In this document: in pieces, positions 1 through 15,973 of the stretch
Numbering within the stretch: position 1 is the stretch's first letter
Layout: each line of letters opens with the position of its first letter
Source of the DNA: Rickettsiales bacterium
GTDB taxonomy: Bacteria; Pseudomonadota; Alphaproteobacteria; Rickettsiales; UBA1997
Assembly: GCA_947487845.1 (NCBI GenBank)
Contig: CANKYC010000003.1
Coordinates: forward strand, 1-32,574
DNA length: 32,574 nt
Reading direction: 5' to 3'
Notes under the pieces: generated by a model
Database searches by the model: none
The model's input: only the letters and a program-made list of their open reading frames with translations
Told to the model about the DNA's origin: nothing
Program-made: the position numbers and the translations under genes

Positions 1-74
1 TGAACATCTTTTTTTTCAAGAGAGCTATTTAAGTGGCTTATATTTGGTGATTAACAACGGTTAATGTTGCTGCT

Positions 75-275
75 TTATTTTCTGTCTAATCTTCTTTCGA
101 GCTCTTTCTTCACATTGGCCATATTGTCGCGGATGTGGTCACAAAAAGACACTATGGCATAAAGCTGCTCATCTGAAAAAGTATGAGCATCTCCGGCAAA
201 ATGTCTTAAATCCGTTGCAAACTTTTCCGCCGAAGCTCGTAAAAAGTAGAATTCAATTTTATTTTCAGCCGACAT
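75..275 (-). CDS. Small hypothetical protein (66 aa, MSAENK...), C-terminal coiled-coil-like segment
   Basis: The ORF track starts at 338, but ATG 275 is preceded by a GAGGAG RBS (gaggagttttATG), and the longer version runs through the 302-344 hairpin. No recognisable domain. Confidence 0.55.
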   Translation of the reverse strand: MSAENKIEFYFLRASAEKFATDLRHFAGDAHTFSDEQLYAIVSFCDHIRDNMANVKKELERRLDRK

Positions 276-301
276 AAAACTCCTCAAAAGATTAAAAATA
301 A

Positions 302-344
302 AAAACCGTGTAGAGCCAGTAAATAGAAGGCTTTGCACGGTTTT
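302..344. terminator. 16-bp imperfect stem-loop with T-runs on both strands; probable terminator or leader structure after the RT
   Basis: aaaaccgtgtagagcc (302-317) pairs with ggctttgcacggtttt (329-344), with two G-U pairs on the + strand. Confidence 0.5.
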
Positions 345-383
345 ATTTTACCTTAAAAAAAGCGTCTAGCAAGCTAATTAGTA

Positions 384-1382
384 TTATTTTTTGGGTATTG
401 CGGCAAACTTACCAACCTCTATCTGCCTAGCTTCGCTTAGGTAACTGTTTAATTTAGCAGTTTCTTCTTTGGTCTTATTTTTTTTATTTTTTAAATCATG
501 AATCTTAAGATGGCTTCTATTTCTGAGTTTTAATTCACCTTTGGGGGTTATGACAATTCCGGTTATTTCTTTATTGTCGCTTGGCTGGTAAACTTTGAAT
601 TTCTTTTTGTTGTAGCTTAGCCCATGATTTACGATGATTTTTTTTGCTTCCTCCGCCACTTTTACGGCATTGTCACCTGATATAATAATATCATCTACCC
701 ACAGAGACATTTTGCATCTATAATTACTGGAAATCTCGTCTATCTCATCAAACATTTTTTTATTGGCATAATATGCCATAACCATGCTTACCGGAGAGCC
801 AGTAGGTAAGTGATTTTTAAATGTTAATATTTGTGCAAAAATCTTGGCTACAGGTGTCCGGCATTTTAAATCTTTTTCAAAAAAGTTGAATATTGACTCA
901 AATGTAACTGATGGGAAAAATCCCTTAAGATCAAGCTTAACTGCATACTTATCGCTATTTTCTAAGTGAAATTTTGCGTTATCTAGACAGCTTCTTCCTT
1001 TAGTTCCGGAGAATAAATATTCTTTTGTTTGGATTGATGAGAGCAAAAAAGATAAGCGTTGATGAATTTTATATAACCCTTCTTTTTTATTTCCCTTTGG
1101 AGTTTGGCATAATCTTTCTTTTACTGCGGCGATAGCAAACTTTTTGCCGTTAGGCATCTCTATCTTTTCTCGAATATTTTTATCATTTAGTTCGGCATAA
1201 TCTTTCACTCTTACCAAACGATAATCTTTGACTGCTGATTCTATGAAATTTTTGTCATTGGAGCTGCTGATTTCTTCAAGAGTTGAAACATTCACTCCAA
1301 GTATTTCAGATAACTTCTTTTTGCTCGGAAGCTTGTAAAAGCAGGACTTTTCTAACGGATATTTTTTATTACTTTTTTTCAT
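384..1382 (-). CDS. Retron-type reverse transcriptase (332 aa, standalone)
   Basis: RT motifs KLDLKGFFPSV, LPTGSPVS and WVDD (YxDD equivalent). Retron region X NAxxH (DNAKFH) and region Y VTG-like (EITG). No group II intron maturase or endonuclease domain. Confidence 0.92.
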   Translation of the reverse strand: MKKSNKKYPLEKSCFYKLPSKKKLSEILGVNVSTLEEISSSNDKNFIESAVKDYRLVRVKDYAELNDKNIREKIEMPNGKKFAIAAVKERLCQTPKGNKKEGLYKIHQRLSFLLSSIQTKEYLFSGTKGRSCLDNAKFHLENSDKYAVKLDLKGFFPSVTFESIFNFFEKDLKCRTPVAKIFAQILTFKNHLPTGSPVSMVMAYYANKKMFDEIDEISSNYRCKMSLWVDDIIISGDNAVKVAEEAKKIIVNHGLSYNKKKFKVYQPSDNKEITGIVITPKGELKLRNRSHLKIHDLKNKKNKTKEETAKLNSYLSEARQIEVGKFAAIPKK

Positions 1383-1668
1383 CTTCTTTACAAATCCAAT
1401 CTAGAAAATCGACAGCGGTTTTGGCTAAAAATAATTTAGCTTTTTTTCTTAAGCCTTTTTTATCCTTATATTCTTCTGCAAACAGCATTATAGACGATAG
1501 AGGTATGTCAAAAACATCGGAGTATTTTTGCAAAACTTCAAGAGTTGGGGTTTTGCTATTTGATTCTATTTCTGAAATGTAAGAGCGGGAAATGCCAAGA
1601 TTTTCTGCTAACTCTAGTTGAGTTTGATGATTAAAGATTCTGATGTGTTTTAGTATTGATCCTAGCAA
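1369..1668 (-). CDS. XRE/Cro-C1 helix-turn-helix protein, retron-associated
   Basis: TQLELAENLGISRSYISEIESNSKTPTLEVL is a typical XRE HTH. TTG start preceded by AAGGA. Overlaps the RT start by 14 nt. Confidence 0.88.
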   Translation of the reverse strand: MLGSILKHIRIFNHQTQLELAENLGISRSYISEIESNSKTPTLEVLQKYSDVFDIPLSSIMLFAEEYKDKKGLRKKAKLFLAKTAVDFLDWICKEDEKK

Positions 1669-1707
1669 TGTTGATGTCCTTAAAATTGTAAAAACGGAGT
1701 AGAAGTT

Positions 1708-1827
1708 TTAACTAAAGAAATCGATGACCTTATTAATCGTATCAACTACTGTAAAAACGATTTTTAAAGTAGTTGGGTTTAATAATTTCTTCCTTAGTGG
1801 CTTTTGTTTTTTTCTATTTTTTGACAT
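1708..1827 (-). CDS. Unannotated 39-aa peptide MSKNRKKQKPLRKKLLNPTTLKIVFTVVDTINKVIDFFS; candidate retron small-protein effector
   Basis: Hand-translated from ATG (1827) to TAA (1708); absent from the ORF track. Lies between the structured RNA and the HTH gene in the same orientation. Very basic N-terminus and hydrophobic/amphipathic C-terminus. Confidence 0.7.
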   Translation of the reverse strand: MSKNRKKQKPLRKKLLNPTTLKIVFTVVDTINKVIDFFS

Positions 1828-2140
1828 AATTTTAAAAATAAAATTATGACACAAAGGTGTGTCGCCCCGACTAAACGAAATGAATCAGTCGCCTCAAAAC
1901 CAACGACATTTCCTTTAGTTACTCTCTAGGACGATCAGACGGTAAAAACAAAAGCCGCTTCCACTCCATTTACCCAGATTCACATTACCACTATAATACC
2001 GATAGCGTAACCTAATATAAATTAGATCTGATTTCCTACACATTGTCTTATGCGCAGAAAGGGAGTTAAGATACTTATTCAGCATCTCGTGAGCAAATGA
2101 ATGCTCAAAAAAACATGAGAGTTATCCGCCTTTCACCTTA
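1828..2140 (-). ncRNA. Putative retron ncRNA (msr-msd) or structured leader; boundaries approximate
   Basis: No ORF in the track. Many stems: 2091-2106, 2070-2086, a long stem 1927-1939/2027-2038 enclosing three hairpins, 1868-1891 and 1848-1863. G-U wobbles favour the - strand. Upstream of a retron RT operon. Confidence 0.65.
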
Positions 2141-2144
2141 CACT

Positions 2145-2172
2145 ATTTTCACCACGATAAAATCTTTGTCAA
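2145..2172 (-). promoter_or_regulatory. Putative sigma70 promoter of the retron operon
   Basis: Perfect TTGACA (2172-2167), 16-nt spacer, then a degenerate -10 (GAAAAT). Confidence 0.45.
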
Positions 2173-2331
2173 TAAAAATGTTGCTGTAAGCGAGGCAATT
2201 ATCCCTTGACATCGTGATTTAGTTAAGGAGAATTAGAGCCGTCCTGACCGACAGTTTTTTTAATCTCAAAATCTAAGCACGAATGTCAAAAGATCCAAAA
2301 ATTCCTCCGCCAGTTAAAGATGATTACGATA

Positions 2332-2889
2332 TTAAGAGCCTATAAATATACTCTTCATAAGCATCAAAAAACTGACTAAGAAGGAAACCGAAATAATCGC
2401 CAAAGCGACATTAATAAATAGCCCTTTAGTGGCGTTTATCTCTTTTGCTTTGGCGATTCTTGTTGAATAAGTTTGCAACTGACAACAAATCAAAAAGCGT
2501 AAATCTCCCTTATTATATTTCGCTTTCAGAAGTTCTTCTGGCGATGTTCCAATTGTAGGAAATTTTTCTGTTTTGTAGGTAATCGATAGAATTGCGAGGG
2601 CAAGACAAAAGCCGCTGATTAACACAATTAAAAGCCCCTGATAAGAAGAATCCCCAAATTTTAAAATTCCAAATAAAGCAGTTAAAGAGGCGGCTAAAAA
2701 AGTTCTTACTAAAGCACTTTTATTATCGAGAGAATCATAATTTGCCGACACAATCCGCATCAACTTTTCGCCCTCTTGCAGAATGAAATTTGCCTTATCT
2801 AAATCTATTTTATCCCAATCAATTTCATCAGGATTTGCAAGTATTTGAGGCTGATTTTTTTTAGTAAAAAATTGTTTTAAAATCTTCAT
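2332..2889 (-). CDS. IS passenger: hypothetical membrane protein with about 3 TM helices
   Basis: Three hydrophobic stretches. Starts 5 nt after the transposase stop and lies inside the TIRs. Confidence 0.75.
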   Translation of the reverse strand: MKILKQFFTKKNQPQILANPDEIDWDKIDLDKANFILQEGEKLMRIVSANYDSLDNKSALVRTFLAASLTALFGILKFGDSSYQGLLIVLISGFCLALAILSITYKTEKFPTIGTSPEELLKAKYNKGDLRFLICCQLQTYSTRIAKAKEINATKGLFINVALAIISVSFLVSFLMLMKSIFIGS

Positions 2890-2894
2890 AAATC

Positions 2895-3785
2895 TTACAA
2901 AATTGTTGCTCCAACCAGCTTATCAAAAATAAACTCGTTGTTGCGGTTGTTATATCTAAACGCAAACTCATTCACATAAAGCTGTAAATGTTTCTTGCTC
3001 ACATGATGATAAATCCCATAAACACCACGCTTCAAGGTTGACCAGAAGCCTTCGATTGAATTTGTGTGAGCGTCAGCACCTTTCTTGTATTCACCTTTTG
3101 AGTGATTAACAACTTGGTGCTGAAATTGACTGTAAAGCCAGTAATAAGCCTTGTGTTCATCTGTCATTATTTGGCTGCCTTTCTTCACATTCTCGTGAAT
3201 TTTAGCCATGATCGTATCGCGCTTTGCATCATCAATTACAAAGGCTCTAACCTCCTTATCTCTTTCAAGCATTCCTAAAACAATCATCTTCTCAAAGATG
3301 CCTTTAGCAGCAACTCTTTCACTCATATGTTTGTTTTCTGCTTTGCCGCCCAAGTAGGTTTCGTCAATCTCAATAATTGTATTCATAAAATCATCGTCAT
3401 CATCTTCTTTCTTCTTTTTATTACCCATCGCAAGACGAATCTGGCGAAGCATACGCCAAGCGGTTTTGTAGGTTACTTCAATTTCTCTTTGAAGCTGCAA
3501 CGCACTAATTCCTTTTTTACCATTTAGAAAAAGGTGAATTGCGTAAAACCATTTGCGAAGGTCTGTGCAAGAGTTTTCAAAAATCGTGTCTTTGAAAATT
3601 GAGAAATCTCTATTGCATTCAGCACATCTAAAAAACTTCATCATTTTTTCGTTTGAGTAAGGATAAGTTTTTAAACTTCCGCAGTGGTTGCAGTGAGGCA
3701 TTTCCTTGCTGTATCTAGTTTTAATGTAATAATCTACTATCGCTTGTTCGGTCGGAAATTTTTTCTGAAATCTTAAAAAATTCAT
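2895..3785 (-). CDS. IS1595-family (ISXO2-like) DDE transposase
   Basis: N-terminal zinc ribbon (CNHC...CAEC), HTH (GISALQLQREIEVTYKTAW), catalytic EIDETY, MTDE and HTNSIEGFWS, C-terminal YVNEFAFRYN. Confidence 0.95.
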   Translation of the reverse strand: MNFLRFQKKFPTEQAIVDYYIKTRYSKEMPHCNHCGSLKTYPYSNEKMMKFFRCAECNRDFSIFKDTIFENSCTDLRKWFYAIHLFLNGKKGISALQLQREIEVTYKTAWRMLRQIRLAMGNKKKKEDDDDDFMNTIIEIDETYLGGKAENKHMSERVAAKGIFEKMIVLGMLERDKEVRAFVIDDAKRDTIMAKIHENVKKGSQIMTDEHKAYYWLYSQFQHQVVNHSKGEYKKGADAHTNSIEGFWSTLKRGVYGIYHHVSKKHLQLYVNEFAFRYNNRNNEFIFDKLVGATIL

Positions 3786-3819
3786 AAAATCTTTTTCGTT
3801 TGGTTTAAGAATTGTGATT

Positions 3820-3848
3820 ATTGTAAAAAGATTGTTTCACGATGTCAA
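3820..3848 (-). promoter_or_regulatory. Transposase promoter with its -35 inside the TIR
   Basis: TTGACA-17 nt-TACAAT, 35 nt upstream of the transposase ATG. Confidence 0.7.
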
Positions 3849-4182
3849 GGGATAATTGCCGTAAGCGACATTTAATTTTCTGCAAGATAGCGATAAGTTC
3901 GTAAATGAGACAAAAATTTTGCTCGTAGAAGTGCTTTGATAAGTTTAGGTGAGACATCACAAAGCCAATGTTTTAGAGGCTAAACTATTTGAGAAAGGTT
4001 AAGCATATTCGGAGAAACGGAGAGATAAATACCGAGAAATTGGCGGAAATTCTGAATTGCGGAGAAGAAGCAGTTAAGGCAAATCAAAAAATACAACCCC
4101 CCTTGATCCCGTAAATACAGGGATTGGAGGGGATATAAAAAATTACAAAAACTGAGCGGAGATAGTTTTTGAGCTGTAGTTA

Positions 4183-4274
4183 TGGCGGAGAAAGAGGGAT
4201 TCGAACCCTCGATACAGTTTTACCCGTATACTTTCTTAGCAGGAAAGTGCCTTCAGCCGCTCGGCCATTTCTCC
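4183..4274 (-). tRNA. tRNA-Ser(GCT)
   Basis: GGAGAAATGGCCGAGCGG...CT-GCT-AA anticodon loop, long variable arm, GGTTCGAATCC T-loop, encoded CCA. Confidence 0.96.
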
Positions 4275-7924: not shown

Positions 7925-10900
7925 TTAGCTAACTAGTGGTTTTAACCTGTTTAATGCAACGATGAACATTGCCAAATCTGGATTTGGCTGGGCTTTTAAA
8001 TCTAAGATGAAGCTGTCGAAACGCTCAACTAAAAAATCAGCAGATTTAATCCAACCATCCAAAGAATTATCTTCGCAAATTTTTTTATCGTCACTGCTAA
8101 AATCAACAATACGTTTCGCAATACGCATTTGGTAAGAATATAAATCTTCCAAAATTGTTTTGCTCGAAAGTTTTTGCCAATAATTTTCTGGAGCTTGTTT
8201 GTTTAATCTACTGCGTAACCATTTTAATGAAAATCTGGTTCCAACTGCGAAATAGATTTTAGCAATTGTTTTTAGATCAAAATTTGAAGCCGCAGAAATT
8301 TCGGCAATATCAAAAGCTGAAGCCACCGGATCCATAGCGGCAACTTTGCCAGCTAATTTGCGGTTCACATTATTTAAATGATATTTCTCGATTTTTCTTT
8401 CAAATGATTCGCGTGATGCTTGCGCCAAAACTTGTGACAAAACTGCTGATAATTCATCAGCAATTTTTCTAAAGCGCGTAACAATTGCAGAAAGGTTGCC
8501 TTTAGATTGATTGCGCAACAACCACATTACAGATCTTTCAAGCAACTTATTTGGGCTTAAGAACATTTGCATTTGAATATGCGAAGCTATTTTGCCATCA
8601 AGATTTTCAATTTCTTCCCAAATTTCACGAAGCCTGAAAGAACCACAAGCGATGATGAAACTTTTTACCACATCAACAATTCCAAAGCCGCTATCTTGGC
8701 ACATTTGATTAATGAAAGTGATACCGATTCTATTCACAATAAAATTGGTGATTTGAGTGGCGATAATTTCATTTCTTAATTGGTGATGAGCAATTTCATC
8801 AGCAAATTTTTCCTGCATTAATTTCGGGAAATAAGAAAATAGTTCGCTCTCGAAATATTTATCCTTAACTAAATCTGACGCTAAAATGTGATTGTAAATA
8901 TCCATTTTAGAATAGGCCAACATCACGCAAAGTTCTGGGCGAGTAAGACCAATTTTATCATTTTGTCTTTTATCAATTTCTTTTTTTGAAGGTAAAAATT
9001 CAATTTTACGATTTAAGAAACCTGTTTTTTCAAGCTTATCTAAAAACTGTGCCTGATCGTCAATTGCGGCAATTCCTTGTGAATAAGCGATTGAAATAGC
9101 TTGAGTTTGCAGGCGATTGTCACTTAGCACCAAATGCGAAACTTCGTCAGTCATTGATTCAAGAATTTTGTTTCTTTCTTCAAGAGTAACTTTTTTGCTA
9201 CGAAGAGCCGAAGTTAAAGCAATTTTAATATTTACTTCATGATCTGAACAATCAACGCCCGCCGAGTTGTCCATTGCGTCAGTGTTAATTCTTCCTCCAG
9301 TTAAAGCATATTCAATACGACCTCTTTGGGTGAAGCCAAGATTTCCGCCCTCACCTATAACTTTGCAACGAAGTTCGTTGCCATTGATGCGAAGTGAATC
9401 GTTTGCACGATCGCCAACTTCTTGATTAACTTCATCATTTGCTTTAACGTAAGTTCCAATTCCACCGTTCCAAAGAAGATCAACCGGCGCTTTTAAAATC
9501 GCCTGAATTAAATCATTTGGAGATAATTCATCTTCTTCAATTGCCAAAATAGCCTTGATTTCAGGTGTGATTTGAATGGTTTTTGCACTTCTTTCAAAAA
9601 TGCCGCCACCTTTGGAAATTAAGGATTTATCATAATCGGTCCAGCTTGAACGCGGAAGATTGAACATGCGCGTGCGCTCTTTGAATGAAGTTGCAACATC
9701 AGGATTTGGATCAAAGAAAATATGCAAATGGTTAAATGCGGCAACGAGCTTGATATGCTGGGAAAGCAACATGCCATTTCCAAAAACGTCGCCTGCTAAA
9801 TCGCCAATTCCAACGCAAGTAAAATCTTGAGTTTGAGTATCGATGCCCATTTCGCGGAAATGACGCATAACTGAAATCCAGCCGCCTTTAGCGGTGATTC
9901 CCATTTTCTTATGATCGTAACCAACTGAACCGCCAGATGCGAAAGCATCTCCAAGCCAGAAATTATATTCTGCAGAAATGCCATTGGCGATGTCGGAGAA
10001 AGTTGCAGTTCCTTTATCTGCTGCAACTACGAGATATGGATCTTGCGCATCATGCATTACAACATTTTGTGGATGTTCAATTTTATTATTTACGACATTG
10101 TCGGTTATGTCCAACAAACCGCGAAGGAAGTTTTGATAGCATTCAACTCCTTCTTTTTGAAGTTCGTCACGAGTAAAAGCACTAGTATCGCGCTTCAAGA
10201 CAAAACCACCTTTTGATCCAACTGGAACAATTACGGCATTTTTAGTCATTTGCGCTTTCATCAAGCCTAAAACTTCAGTTCTGAAATCTTCTTGACGATC
10301 AGACCAGCGAAGCCCGCCGCGCGCAACTTTACCGCCTCTTAAGTGAATTGCTTCAAACCTAGTTGAATAAACAAAAATTTCAGCGTGTGGAAGTGGAAGT
10401 GGAAGTTCGGGAACTTTTTTGCAATCAAATTTGAAGGAAACATAACCTTTAAATCCGCCATGTTTCAATGATTGATAATAGTTGGTGCGCAGTGTTGCTT
10501 CAATTACACCGAGCAATCTTCTGATAACTGAATCATCAGTTACATCTTTTACTTTATTTAAACCTTCACGGATTTGAGCAGCAATTTTTTCAGTTTTTTT
10601 ATTTCTTTCAGCCAAGGTGATTTTTAAGAACGGATCAAATTTTGCTTCAAATAATTCGACCAATAATTTGGTGATTGCAGAATATCTAACCAAAACATCC
10701 GCAACATAAGTTTGGCTAAAACGAAATCCAGTTTGATGAAGATATTTGCTATATGCGTTAAGCATGTAAACCTGCTTCCAATGCAAGTCAGCGGTGACGA
10801 CAAGGCGGTTTAAAAAGCCAACTTGCATCATATCTTGCCAAATTAATGAAACGGTTTTTTCAAAATTTAATTTAGTTTTTTCTGAAAATAAGTGACCTTG

Positions 10901-12760
10901 TTTGCTTAAGTTTAAATGGAAATAGTGAATCCAGACTTTGCGTTTGCTTCTGATTTTTTCATCTTCTTCCGCAGTTATAACGTAAGTATGTTCTTGAATT
11001 ACGTTAAAGCCGAAACTTTCTAAAATCGGCATGATTGAAGAAAGAATTAATTCTTTTTCTGGGCTAAAAATTTTAAGTTCGGTTACATCTTCGGGAAGCA
11101 AATCGGAAGATTTGTAAAGATTAAATAAAACTAAATTTTTTTGCAGACATTCTTCAATGCGTGAAATATCAATCGCGGCGCGCTTAGAATCGAAACGGTT
11201 GATGTAACTTACTGAGAAAGCATTTTTGTATTTAGCGTAAAGTGAAACACGAACTTCATCATCAAATTTGGCTTTGATTGATTCCAGCAAGTCATCGCTC
11301 CAAACTTTAGTCATTTTGGTAATTTGGCGCTCAATATCATTTTCATCAACAGTTGGAATTCCTTTATTGGTGCGAACAATTACGTGGAAACGAATTAGGT
11401 TTGAATCAGTGATTTGCACAAAAGAATCTGCAACTTCGCCATTATAAACTTGGGCAAGGTAATCTTTAATTTTATCGCGCAATTCAGAATTGCTGCGATC
11501 ACGCGGAGTGAAAATCAAGCAGCTAACGAAACGGTTAAATTTATCTTTGCGACCAAAGAAACGAACTTGTGAACGACCGCAAATCGCTACAATTCCGGTA
11601 GCATTTTTAAGTAAATCTTCGGAGCTAATTTGGAATAATTCATCGCGCGGATAAAATTCTAAAGTCGAAACTAAATCTTTGTAATTATGGCTGGCTTTAA
11701 TGTAGCCAGAATCTGCAATAACTTTATTAATTTTACCACGAATAAGTGGAATTGAAGCTGTGCTGGCGTGATAAGATGATGTAGCAAATAAACCGATAAA
11801 ACGGAATTCACCAATTACCTTTCCTTCAGCAGAAATTTTTTGAACACGAACTCTTTCTGCATTTGCAACTCTGTGAATTCTAGAGCGATAACGCGATTTT
11901 AAAACTTCGATTACATAAGGATTTGTAACTGAATCACTAACTTCTTCAAAAGAAGTATTAATAACTTCTGGTACAAATTCTTCATTTTCAGATCTAAAAA
12001 TTCCAAAACCGGAATTTTTAGCTTCTTCCAAAGCATATTCATTTTTTTTAACTTCGCGAACATCAAATTCTTTAGCACCAAGAAGGATAAAATTTCCGCT
12101 GGCGATCCAGTTTAAAAATTCTTTAATTTCATCAGTTTCTTTATTGATTTTTTTCGCATTATCAATTTGATCCGCAGCTTTATTAACAAGCTCAATCATT
12201 GGCTGCCAATCTTTTACAACCAAGGCAACATTTATCAAAATTTTGCTGATATTTTCTTGCAACATTTTGATATCTGATTCTGCGGTAAGCTTATCTAAAT
12301 GCAGCTGAATTATGGATTCTTGATGAGCAGTTTTAGAAGTAGAAATTTCTTCTAACTTTCCACTTTTACCACGGATTGAAGAATAAATCGGATGAATAAT
12401 ATTTTTAACGCGAATGCCGTATTTATCTAAATAGGCAACAGTTGAATCAACCAAAAAAGGCATATCATCATTAACAATATCCAAAAAAGTATAAGCTGAT
12501 TCGAAGCCATTTTTCTCAATTGTCGGATTGCAAATTCTGACTTTAAATTCACCCGGTTTTTTATTTACATAAAAATCAAAACTCAAAAGAGCCGCGTTGT
12601 ATAACTCTTCGATTGAGTAATTTAGAAAATCGCGCGAAGTGCTTGCTGAAAAAAAGTTTTTTACAAAAGTTGTAAAATCTTTTCCGTCAAAACCGACAAA
12701 TTGTTTTTTCTTTTGAGAAAAGTCGATTACTTGCGCGATTAAATCCTGCATTTTTTGCAT
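7925..12760 (-). CDS. gdhB: Large NAD-specific glutamate dehydrogenase (1611 aa)
   Basis: ARGGLRWSDR, KNAVIVPVGSKGGF, YLVVAADKGTATFSD, GYDHKKMGITAKG and DNSAGVDCSDHEVNIKI motifs. Confidence 0.96.
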   Translation of the reverse strand: MQKMQDLIAQVIDFSQKKKQFVGFDGKDFTTFVKNFFSASTSRDFLNYSIEELYNAALLSFDFYVNKKPGEFKVRICNPTIEKNGFESAYTFLDIVNDDMPFLVDSTVAYLDKYGIRVKNIIHPIYSSIRGKSGKLEEISTSKTAHQESIIQLHLDKLTAESDIKMLQENISKILINVALVVKDWQPMIELVNKAADQIDNAKKINKETDEIKEFLNWIASGNFILLGAKEFDVREVKKNEYALEEAKNSGFGIFRSENEEFVPEVINTSFEEVSDSVTNPYVIEVLKSRYRSRIHRVANAERVRVQKISAEGKVIGEFRFIGLFATSSYHASTASIPLIRGKINKVIADSGYIKASHNYKDLVSTLEFYPRDELFQISSEDLLKNATGIVAICGRSQVRFFGRKDKFNRFVSCLIFTPRDRSNSELRDKIKDYLAQVYNGEVADSFVQITDSNLIRFHVIVRTNKGIPTVDENDIERQITKMTKVWSDDLLESIKAKFDDEVRVSLYAKYKNAFSVSYINRFDSKRAAIDISRIEECLQKNLVLFNLYKSSDLLPEDVTELKIFSPEKELILSSIMPILESFGFNVIQEHTYVITAEEDEKIRSKRKVWIHYFHLNLSKQGHLFSEKTKLNFEKTVSLIWQDMMQVGFLNRLVVTADLHWKQVYMLNAYSKYLHQTGFRFSQTYVADVLVRYSAITKLLVELFEAKFDPFLKITLAERNKKTEKIAAQIREGLNKVKDVTDDSVIRRLLGVIEATLRTNYYQSLKHGGFKGYVSFKFDCKKVPELPLPLPHAEIFVYSTRFEAIHLRGGKVARGGLRWSDRQEDFRTEVLGLMKAQMTKNAVIVPVGSKGGFVLKRDTSAFTRDELQKEGVECYQNFLRGLLDITDNVVNNKIEHPQNVVMHDAQDPYLVVAADKGTATFSDIANGISAEYNFWLGDAFASGGSVGYDHKKMGITAKGGWISVMRHFREMGIDTQTQDFTCVGIGDLAGDVFGNGMLLSQHIKLVAAFNHLHIFFDPNPDVATSFKERTRMFNLPRSSWTDYDKSLISKGGGIFERSAKTIQITPEIKAILAIEEDELSPNDLIQAILKAPVDLLWNGGIGTYVKANDEVNQEVGDRANDSLRINGNELRCKVIGEGGNLGFTQRGRIEYALTGGRINTDAMDNSAGVDCSDHEVNIKIALTSALRSKKVTLEERNKILESMTDEVSHLVLSDNRLQTQAISIAYSQGIAAIDDQAQFLDKLEKTGFLNRKIEFLPSKKEIDKRQNDKIGLTRPELCVMLAYSKMDIYNHILASDLVKDKYFESELFSYFPKLMQEKFADEIAHHQLRNEIIATQITNFIVNRIGITFINQMCQDSGFGIVDVVKSFIIACGSFRLREIWEEIENLDGKIASHIQMQMFLSPNKLLERSVMWLLRNQSKGNLSAIVTRFRKIADELSAVLSQVLAQASRESFERKIEKYHLNNVNRKLAGKVAAMDPVASAFDIAEISAASNFDLKTIAKIYFAVGTRFSLKWLRSRLNKQAPENYWQKLSSKTILEDLYSYQMRIAKRIVDFSSDDKKICEDNSLDGWIKSADFLVERFDSFILDLKAQPNPDLAMFIVALNRLKPLVS

Positions 12761-14695: not shown

Positions 14696-15973
14696 ATGAA
14701 AAAACTTTCCCTGCTTTTAGTGTTTTTTCTTTTTAGCTGTCAATCAATTAGCAAAAAGATTGAATTGCTACAAATCCTCAAGCCAAGCGAAGAAACAGCT
14801 CCCGTTAAAACGCATCAACAATTTGAATCTCGTGATTTAGGTGTTGAACAATCACAACTAAAAAAAGTTCAAGTAGCATTATTTTTACCATTTTCAGGAA
14901 AGAATAAAGAGTTGGGATGGAGTTTGTTTAATGCCGCAACTTTATCGTTATTTGACAATGATCCAAATCATAATATTGAATTGATTTTGATTGATTCCAA
15001 AGAAACGCCGCAAGAAACTGCTAAAGCTTTCAAAGAAGTTATTGATCGCAAAATTAAAATTGTCATCGGGCCAATTTTTAGCACTTCGGTTGAGGCAATT
15101 GAAAAAGATGCTAAAGCCAATCAAATCACCGTAATTTCACTTTCTAACAATCAGCAACTAATTGGTAAAATTAATAATGAAGGCGGAATTTTTATCGCTG
15201 GAATGTTGCCTGAAACTCAGATTGATAAAATTGTTAATTATAGTTTGCAAAAAGCTAAATTCAGTTTTGCAATCATCGCACCAAATAATCAATATGGACA
15301 AACCATTAATGGTCTGTTCAAAAAAATGGTGAAAAACCGTGATGGCGATTTTATTACTTCCGAATTTTATGATCCAAGCGGTAAAGATTTGGATCACGCT
15401 GTTAACCGAGTGATTAATTCATTTTCGATTTCACCGCATTTAAAAAATAAAAAAGACGCAGTTATTACCGAGTCGGATCGCAATTATCCCAAGGTTATAA
15501 TTATTCCGGAATCAGGAAAAACTTTATCCAAAATTGTCGCGTCAATTAAAGAGCAAAATAAAGATGAAAGAGAATTTCAGATTGTAGGAACCAGCCAATG
15601 GGATGATGTTTCAACATTAAATGATTTTAACCTTGTTGGCGCATGGTTTCCGGCCCCGGAAAATGAAAAATTCCGCAGTTTTGAAAAAGCTTATTACCAA
15701 ACTTACAATAAATTCCCGCCCAGAATTTCTTCGATTATTTATGATTCAGTTTCGGTTGTAGCAGAATTATCAGACCGCAAAAAAGGCGAAGCGCCTATGG
15801 TTGCTGATTTTACAAACTACAGCAAATCTTCAAAAAATGGTTTTGATGGAATTGATGGTTTATTTAGATATTTGCCCAATGGCTTGGTGCAAAGGAATTT
15901 GGCGGTTTTAAAAGTTGGAAATGGTCGCTTTGAAACTATCGAAAAACCAGTGGAACAGTTTTTGAAATATTAG
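14696..15973 (+). CDS. Penicillin-binding protein activator LpoA/LppC-like lipoprotein
   Basis: Lipobox-like LFSC. VALFLPFSG, IVIGPIFS and FDGIDGLFRY...GLVQRNLAV motifs. Divergent from rsmI. Confidence 0.82.
   Translation: MKKLSLLLVFFLFSCQSISKKIELLQILKPSEETAPVKTHQQFESRDLGVEQSQLKKVQVALFLPFSGKNKELGWSLFNAATLSLFDNDPNHNIELILIDSKETPQETAKAFKEVIDRKIKIVIGPIFSTSVEAIEKDAKANQITVISLSNNQQLIGKINNEGGIFIAGMLPETQIDKIVNYSLQKAKFSFAIIAPNNQYGQTINGLFKKMVKNRDGDFITSEFYDPSGKDLDHAVNRVINSFSISPHLKNKKDAVITESDRNYPKVIIIPESGKTLSKIVASIKEQNKDEREFQIVGTSQWDDVSTLNDFNLVGAWFPAPENEKFRSFEKAYYQTYNKFPPRISSIIYDSVSVVAELSDRKKGEAPMVADFTNYSKSSKNGFDGIDGLFRYLPNGLVQRNLAVLKVGNGRFETIEKPVEQFLKY

Follow-up and report, generated by a model that had tools for sequence, protein, structure and literature searches.

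Type VI retrons were defined as a class by Mestre et al. (2020; PMC7736814), and their RNA, toxin and triggers have been dissected by Zhang et al. (10.1101/2025.10.22.683967) and Garcia-Rodriguez et al. (10.64898/2026.04.27.721009). As the first paper defines it, the class has a clade-3-type reverse transcriptase (RT) with an NAXXH motif between RT2 and RT3 and a VTG-type triplet in RT7, a Cro/C1-type helix-turn-helix (HTH) partner of 91–110 aa, and a small auxiliary protein without an identifiable domain; the auxiliary clusters named there measure 75–79 aa, and no noncoding RNA was identified for the class in that paper. Here we describe a locus of this kind at the start of a contig (CANKYC010000003.1) from a Rickettsiales genome (assembly GCA_947487845.1; 1.05 Mb, 57% complete). 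The window is the whole 32,574-nt stretch that was analyzed; coordinates refer to it, and all retron elements lie on its minus strand. The locus (2172–294) is very probably a Type VI retron, composed of RT, HTH protein, hybrid RNA and small protein (SP), that would act as an abortive-infection anti-phage system. Both the SP-HTH-RT architecture and the model of the SP as a toxin are already in print, and the locus adds one member to a described class; its particular points are a 39-aa SP without a ribosome site, a host lineage with an AddA-type nuclease, and RNA contigs from the environment.

An earlier note on this DNA, made from the sequence alone, had listed five co-oriented minus-strand elements (promoter sequence, leader, 39-aa open reading frame [ORF], HTH and RT), and each was found where it had been placed. 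The components of the operon, in order of transcription, are as follows.

2145–2172, minus strand: putative sigma-70-like promoter, TTGACA at 2172–2167, 16-nt spacer, GAAAAT at 2150–2145
1699–2130, minus strand: hybrid-RNA-like unit, structured leader plus SP ORF, bounded by the outer limits of the RNA-library contigs
1708–1827, minus strand: SP gene, 39 aa, predicted toxin, MSKNRKKQKPLRKKLLNPTTLKIVFTVVDTINKVIDFFS, ATG at 1827, stop at 1710–1708
1369–1668, minus strand: Cro/C1-type HTH protein, 99 aa, TTG start, AAGGA 8 nt upstream
384–1382, minus strand: retron RT, 332 aa, NAKFH at residues 135–139, WVDD at 228–231, ITG at 273–275
294–344, minus strand: terminator-like hairpin followed by a U run, 9-bp stem plus inner 4-bp stem, 3' of the RT stop

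The best PADLOC model for the RT is RT_VI (E = 8.5e-70, 233 bits, profile positions 2–274 of 279), with RT_III-A next at 3e-32, and Pfam returns RVT_1 at 1.1e-12. Both class signatures are present as the earlier note had read them, NAXXH as NAKFH and the VTG-type triplet as ITG; the RT gene overlaps the HTH gene by 14 nt. Across 25 aligned RTs the catalytic DD, the H of NAKFH and G275 of ITG are invariant, and T274 is kept in at least 90%. In a quick maximum-likelihood tree of 87 RTs, built here, the RT falls in a clade of 26 rows (support 100), itself nested in one of 53 rows (SH-like approximate likelihood ratio test [SH-aLRT] 99) that contains all 18 loci with both HTH and SP. The note had proposed an HTH-associated (Type VI) retron and had pointed to PADLOC, an RT phylogeny and a small ORF with HTH in homologous loci as checks; the RT_VI and HTH_VI matches, the nesting in the SH-aLRT 99 clade and the joint occurrence of small ORF and HTH in 18 loci bear this out.

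The WVDD form of the catalytic box was considered as a novelty and set aside: its first residue varies among Type VI loci (Y, F, W, C, L, I), for which reason WVDD is not read as a defect either. Residue counts for the YXDD box are biased, as the fishing pattern itself included WVDD, and a literature search on reverse transcriptases gave no match for "WVDD." The subclade of this RT also carries an N-terminal insertion of ~33 residues (residues ~66–100, ~1185–1083) relative to the other Type VI RTs aligned. There are 12 close RT homologues on record; the 11 RT homologues P0002–P0012 show 76–84% identity. The 78 relatives on viral contigs all share at most 37% identity with the RT, and at most 30% where most of the RT is matched.

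The HTH protein matches PADLOC HTH_VI (2e-33, profile positions 1–91 of 92) and Pfam HTH_3 (1.5e-13), with 13 residues invariant across 20 sequences. It is of the Cro/C1 type, its 99 aa fall within the ~91–110 aa of the class, and its gene overlaps that of the RT. The nearest sister group of the RT (L013, 961–1128, and L014, 428–607; 45% identity, GC content 0.28–0.35) is arranged differently: a 55–59-aa ORF with a basic head immediately precedes and overlaps the RT gene, and there is no HTH gene. This arrangement is an SP-RT form of the system.

Comparisons below use a few named relatives. L012 is a relative locus 96.5% identical overall. L171 (G485:C24), from a family-wide genome search, is a retron copy from the same genus with 79% nucleotide identity over 2193–430. 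L001 (also L170, G463) is a 99.3%-identical retron copy from a genome assigned by the genome index to a different genus of the family, and L172 comes from another genus of the family, its RT being 47–56% identical. P0033 is an SP homologue found among 5.8 billion predicted proteins, which were queried with the 48-aa, TTG-started form of the SP ORF.

That 48-aa form, from TTG 1854, is how the ORF was listed. An extra T at 1839 in L012 breaks the TTG-started extension and leaves the ATG frame intact, so ATG 1827 is taken as the shared start. The ORF ends 39 nt before the HTH gene; relatives that have an HTH gene and sufficient upstream sequence carry an ORF that stops 19–66 nt short of that gene and encodes a basic head followed by a hydrophobic or amphipathic tail, and several of these ORFs have the LLNPTTLK-like motif of the SP of this stretch. 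A profile built from 13 relatives, with the SP of this stretch left out, picked the SP frame at E = 1.4e-6 as its sole match among 696 frames (the second-best of the 696 six-frame segments reached E = 0.12). It also matched the pre-HTH ORFs of L015, L016, L017 and L019, which had no part in building it, at E = 8e-9 to 4.5e-8, and missed L013/L014 as well as L027, whose ORF resembles an SP only on visual inspection (E = 2). The search of predicted proteins returned P0033 as the single relative, also 39 aa and 82% identical, whose seven substitutions are by our reading all conservative. L172 has a 39-aa ORF of similar build and position that matches weakly (BLASTP E = 0.010; hidden Markov model E = 0.03). 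Differences from L012 number 0/120 positions in the SP, 0/39 in the spacer, 8/345 in the leader, 19/286 in the HTH-only part and 33/985 in the RT. Judged from these sequence comparisons, the small ORF upstream of the HTH gene is a genuine gene belonging to the Type VI SP family. The earlier note's placing of the small protein beside the noncoding RNA needs one refinement: the SP ORF lies within the structured RNA itself.

Residues 1–16 of the SP have a net charge of +8. Its last 18 residues have a mean hydropathy of 1.27 and a hydrophobic moment of 0.58, and no membrane-spanning segment is predicted (maximum 18-residue hydropathy 1.27). Type I toxin-antitoxin peptides such as Hok and TisB are likewise small toxic peptides whose translation is blocked by the fold of their own mRNA. 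By analogy, the SP may work as they do while standing outside that family: here there is no antisense RNA, control would instead pass through the RT and the HTH protein, and the membrane-spanning segment is not predicted.

The leader, ~310 nt from the -10 box to ATG 1827, corresponds to the ~300 nt of hairpin-rich noncoding sequence noted earlier. Folded together with the SP ORF (2145–1669), it reaches -137.8 kcal/mol (z = -6.70), and the shorter segment 2130–1690 reaches -133.1 kcal/mol (z = -6.72); none of 100 shuffles was as stable in either case. The predicted fold joins a retron noncoding part to the SP coding sequence in one RNA and contains the following elements.

1975–2128, minus strand: 5' multi-hairpin domain, msr-msd-like first arm, with hairpins at 2107–2090, 2088–2068, 2060–2033, 2028–2009 and 2007–1989
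1944–1969, minus strand: IR1, upstream arm of two long-range helices (1969–1958 and 1956–1944)
1862–1934, minus strand: long imperfect hairpin, candidate template (msd) stem-loop, apical part variable in L171
1825–1848, minus strand: 10-bp A/U hairpin with the SP AUG (1827–1825) in its 3' arm, stem identical in L171
1799–1811, minus strand: SP codons 6–10, paired with 1956–1944 in a 13-bp helix
1694–1705, minus strand: IR2, arm just after the SP stop, followed by a U run, 12 bp with 1969–1958

The 3' domain is closed by the 12-bp helix between 1969–1958 and 1705–1694, and the remaining SP coding sequence also forms hairpins. Naming the 1934–1862 hairpin as the msd is a guess by analogy with Vpa2 and Sen3. 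Covariation was assessed with RNAalifold on a three-sequence alignment with L012 and L171, which gave 140 pairs, nine of them compensatory (both sides changed) and 14 kept through one-sided changes. Hairpins 2107–2090 and 2060–2033 remain paired in L171 through two-sided changes (columns 32/43, 33/42, 83/98), and in the 13-bp helix one pair changes from C-G to U-A and another from U-A to U-G (columns 200/354, 201/353). Separate folds of the stretch and of L171 agree on the long-range helices, the long hairpin and the AUG hairpin, with IR1-IR2 recovered in L171 as 8 + 7 bp. A helix of the first fold, 2146–2140 with 2008–2002, was dropped, being lost in L171 and lying upstream of the RNA-contig ends. 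At the gathering score Rfam matched only two tRNAs, and a permissive Rfam search of 1600–2250 gave chance matches only (E at least 1.8). A blastn-short comparison of the RNA region with 168 loci (L001, L006 and L012 excluded) found only 14–18-nt chance matches (best E = 0.96); because nucleotide similarity does not rise above chance, the distant loci gave no covariation.

RNA contigs from four metatranscriptome runs were compared with 1–2400, and all four runs (4 studies, lake or marine) hold a contig of 420–442 nt on the leader plus SP ORF (spans 1699–2113, 1701–2130, 1701–2121 and 1736–2121). The extension of contigs past 2121 in two runs and past 1736 in one is presumably Illumina adapter, and the coincident contig ends are a weak hint only. 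Two short RNA contigs match 1913–1974 and 1940–1971 alone and then diverge, which points to an IR1 core common to diverged relatives. Over most of the HTH and RT genes (561–1680) the four runs have no RNA contig, an absence of cover that is no evidence in itself; one run (X18) alone has a short piece at 466–492 in the RT gene, together with short contigs at 123–268 and 2197–2230. Between 0.80 and 0.99 of the sampled words of this DNA occur in 14 DNA runs from lake, freshwater or wastewater sources.

The TTGACA/GAAAAT pair is plausibly a promoter on sequence grounds: it matches 10 of 12 consensus positions, and both hexamers are identical in L012 and L171 in the alignment, while promoter-like sites in 1–3000 are no more frequent than chance (13 vs. 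10.1 ± 3.1 in shuffles). The hairpin at 294–344 has a fold z of -1.93, with 8 of 200 shuffles equally stable; a consensus terminator scan passed over it because of its long loop. The unit conserved among copies is 2193–250, beginning at 2193 in L001, L012 and L171. It contains no enzymatic effector gene by ORF list, PADLOC or Pfam, as the earlier note had also concluded. A 56-aa leader ORF (1915–2085) was rejected as a gene, since it is only 29 aa in L012. Downstream of the terminator an 87-aa ORF (75–338, minus strand; 66 aa from an internal ATG) has no family match; it is common to L012 and replaced in L001 from 250 onward.

Against published accounts, the closest likeness is to Retron-Vpa2 of Vibrio parahaemolyticus, compared by its published description (10.1101/2025.10.22.683967). 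Both have the gene order SP-HTH-RT and a single structured RNA that holds a retron part and the SP coding sequence (~470 nt in Vpa2, ~430 nt here), with a start codon inside a stem, a 3' end that pairs back upstream, here in a predicted helix, and a three-arm layout, and both SPs have a hydrophobic C-terminal core. The differences are that the SP here is 39 aa rather than 55 aa, that there is no Shine-Dalgarno sequence to sequester, that the C-terminal helix is more amphipathic (0.58 vs. 0.3–0.4), that the catalytic box is WVDD rather than YADD, and that the host genus appears to have AddA and no RecB. With Sen3/cl2075 as described (10.64898/2026.04.27.721009), the locus would share IR1-IR2 pairing around the SP gene, and it shares a structured SP coding region, an HTH gene overlapping or abutting that of the RT, and an amphipathic C-terminal helix in the SP. 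The SP of those systems is 79 aa with an N-terminal extension of ~25 residues, whereas here it is half as long and begins with a +8 basic head; those systems occur in Beta- and Gammaproteobacteria, and the target they guard is RecBCD. Compared with the class as set out in PMC7736814, the clade-3-type RT, its NAXXH and VTG-like motifs, the 99-aa Cro/C1 partner and a small protein without an identifiable domain all recur; at 39 aa the SP falls outside the 75–79 aa of the named auxiliary clusters cl2075, cl2760, cl3272 and cl3897, and an RNA is evident here.

The retron is rare in its surroundings. The RT was found in six of 400 genomes sampled from the order, and the retron in four of 126 family genomes and two of the 44 searched genomes of its own genus, the source genome counted. 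All four family copies lie within ~450 nt of a tRNA gene, though different ones (Ser, Ser, Ala, Met; 4183–4274 here, 3166–3241 in L171, 2323–2399 in L172), and the unit directly adjoins a tRNA-Ser flank in L001 and L012. The L001 copy is in another genus at 99.3% identity, while the shared tRNA flank is only 90.6% identical and the tRNA-Ser anticodon is read there as GGA vs. GCT in the stretch; the sequences point to recent transfer. No integrase was seen in the retron-locus stretches compared.

In this genome an insertion sequence separates the retron from the tRNA-Ser gene and ends 14 bp upstream of the -35 box.

2194–3860, minus strand: IS1595-family insertion, 1667 bp, outside the retron, with perfect 20-bp terminal inverted repeats

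Its 8-bp target duplication, TCGCTTAC, stands at 2186–2193 and 3861–3868. It carries a 296-aa transposase (2895–3785) and a 185-aa ORF without family match (2332–2889), possibly a passenger gene, is absent from L001, L012 and L171, and is present as a single copy in the incomplete genome. Elsewhere in the window, a 1611-aa ORF (7925–12760, minus strand) and a 425-aa ORF (14696–15973, plus strand), without NCBIfam match at E ≤ 1e-5, sit among the housekeeping genes pntA, rsmI, tsaD, dnaB, glmS and PBP1A.

The nuclease complement of the host bears on the trigger. None of 21 genomes of the genus reaches the RecB model cut-off (best 218 bits vs. 696), and the ORFs that do best on the RecB model score 568–865 bits on the alphaproteobacterial AddA model in the 21 genomes. 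The genus thus appears to have AddA and no RecB.

From these features we propose a working model, whose first step draws on data from the locus and whose later steps are modeled on Retron-Vpa2. A single promoter would drive the operon, and the leader plus SP ORF, seen as ~430-nt RNA-library contigs, would be a discrete, accumulating RNA species. Translation of the SP would be held off, because its AUG lies in a hairpin, no Shine-Dalgarno sequence is present, and codons 6–10 are paired upstream. The HTH protein, from its own AAGGA site, and the RT, coupled through the 14-nt overlap, would be made from read-through and bind the RNA, with the HTH protein restraining both reverse transcription and the SP. 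Upon phage infection, single-stranded DNA made by the RT would accumulate or the HTH protein be released. The trigger would probably be phage recombination or anti-nuclease proteins, acting in this host on an AddAB-type rather than a RecBCD-type enzyme. The 39-aa SP, with its +8 N-terminus and amphipathic C-terminal helix, would then be produced and arrest the cell. The roles given in the earlier note, with the peptide as toxin and RT, RNA and HTH as control, are those of the published models for Vpa2 and Sen3 and would apply here by analogy.

Several points weigh against this reading of the locus. Toxicity, multicopy single-stranded DNA (msDNA), defence and trigger are inferred here from Vpa2 and Sen3. 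The SP has no Shine-Dalgarno sequence, which is present in all 13 relatives examined, and might be translated poorly or not at all; PADLOC and Pfam searches do not recognize it. In L171, from the same genus, it is frameshifted: an extra T after codon 27 (at the equivalent of 1747) gives a 31-aa product without the C-terminal helix, in a copy whose HTH and RT are intact, so that the allele is either detoxified or an assembly error. The IS1595 insertion may alter expression in this genome. The metatranscriptome contigs give presence in RNA libraries, and not strand, level or a single transcript. In the RNA model, 17 of the 140 pairs are lost to a mismatch or gap in one sequence of the three; five of these lie in IR1-IR2, where L171 is shifted by one column in the MAFFT alignment. 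The covariation comes from one lineage, L171 being the only diverged RNA homologue compared. The duplex energy of IR1-IR2 is borderline: it is reached by 7 of 200 shuffles, and only two of 12 relatives have at most 1/200 shuffles as good, so this shuffle test was not used as support.

The main alternative concerns how the parts interact. If the locus worked as Sen3 does, the SP and single-stranded DNA would be constitutive, the HTH protein would be a post-translational antitoxin binding the SP directly, and infection would free the SP while its translation stayed unchanged. We consider this possible, if somewhat unlikely. It is favored by the hydrophobic moment of the SP C-terminus (0.58), nearer the ~0.6 of Sen3-type SPs than the 0.3–0.4 of Vpa2 in the published descriptions, and by a predicted HTH-SP complex from own alignments, which scored 0.42 (runs 0.42, 0.49 and 0.36) with the best of three controls at 0.00, contacts agreeing at 86% or more and partner pLDDT (predicted local distance difference test) of at least 63, a result classed as "weak support." In calibration, 58 of 80 solved complexes and two of 110 mismatched pairs attained that mark, but scores of 0.60 or lower were found in only seven of the 80 solved complexes and in both passing mismatches; on this calibration, a value of 0.42 misleads more often than not unless the pairing was likely to begin with. 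The AUG hairpin, the missing Shine-Dalgarno sequence and the compensatory change in the codon 6–10 helix speak instead for translational control. A Vpa2-like translational lock on the SP is therefore more likely here than Sen3-like working, given the AUG in a stem, the lack of a ribosome site and the pairing of codons 6–10 with its compensatory change; the two mechanisms are not mutually exclusive.

Other explanations deny the system its function or its effector. That the module is a selfish toxin-antitoxin addiction cassette, stabilizing a tRNA-linked island rather than defending against phage, would suit its patchy occurrence and recent transfer, its constant position beside tRNA genes (if not the same one) and the finding that the Sen3 HTH-SP is a toxin-antitoxin pair independent of RT and noncoding RNA (10.64898/2026.04.27.721009). 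We think it quite improbable: RT and RNA are conserved along with the pair, catalytic residues included, the loci show no integrase or other island genes, and the characterized relatives defend against phages in an RT-dependent manner (10.1101/2025.10.22.683967). Decay to a non-functional remnant beside a tRNA gene is very improbable. It could draw on the same rarity within family and genus, the frameshifted SP of L171, the insertion next to the promoter and an SP that is the shortest seen and has no ribosome site; yet none of the three ORFs is interrupted, RT and HTH retain their invariant residues, the SP shows no change in L012 and only conservative ones in P0033, leader plus SP contigs occur in all four RNA runs, and the near-identical copy in another genus implies recent transfer of an intact unit. 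Finally, the 39-codon frame might be untranslated and conserved as structured RNA, with the effector elsewhere, a reading to which the missing Shine-Dalgarno sequence and the overlap with conserved helices lend something, and for which the 0/120 differences from L012 fit RNA constraint as well as coding constraint. This we hold to be very improbable, as the protein profile finds the frame at E = 1.4e-6 where the RNA region has no nucleotide similarity to the distant loci, both P0033 and L172 have a frame of exactly 39 codons, the indel in L012 abolishes the TTG extension and spares the ATG frame, and the conserved unit shares no other gene.

The Type VI retron proposed here leaves the known picture of the class unchanged and places an anti-phage system that was dissected only recently in an uncultured freshwater family of Rickettsiales with small genomes, in which it is rare (4/126) and recently exchanged between genera. 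It also indicates how nearly invisible the effector of such systems is to gene callers, with one SP homologue found vs. 12 close RT homologues. Beyond this, the lineage could carry a minimal Type VI toxin (39 aa, a +8 head and one amphipathic helix) that has no ribosome site, whose translation depends wholly on RNA remodeling and whose trigger is not RecBCD inhibition; this more specific idea is speculative, and we rate it as unlikely. In that case the trigger could not be RecBCD inhibition as in Sen3, because the genus is without a RecB-type nuclease; the system may then turn out to guard something else or to sense phage recombinases directly, and the lake RNA contigs would be the trace of a hybrid RNA that is constitutively abundant in natural populations. 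A 39-residue SP would narrow the minimal toxic core of the family, and a host genus with no RecB would provide a natural setting in which to ask if Type VI retrons generally watch over RecBCD.

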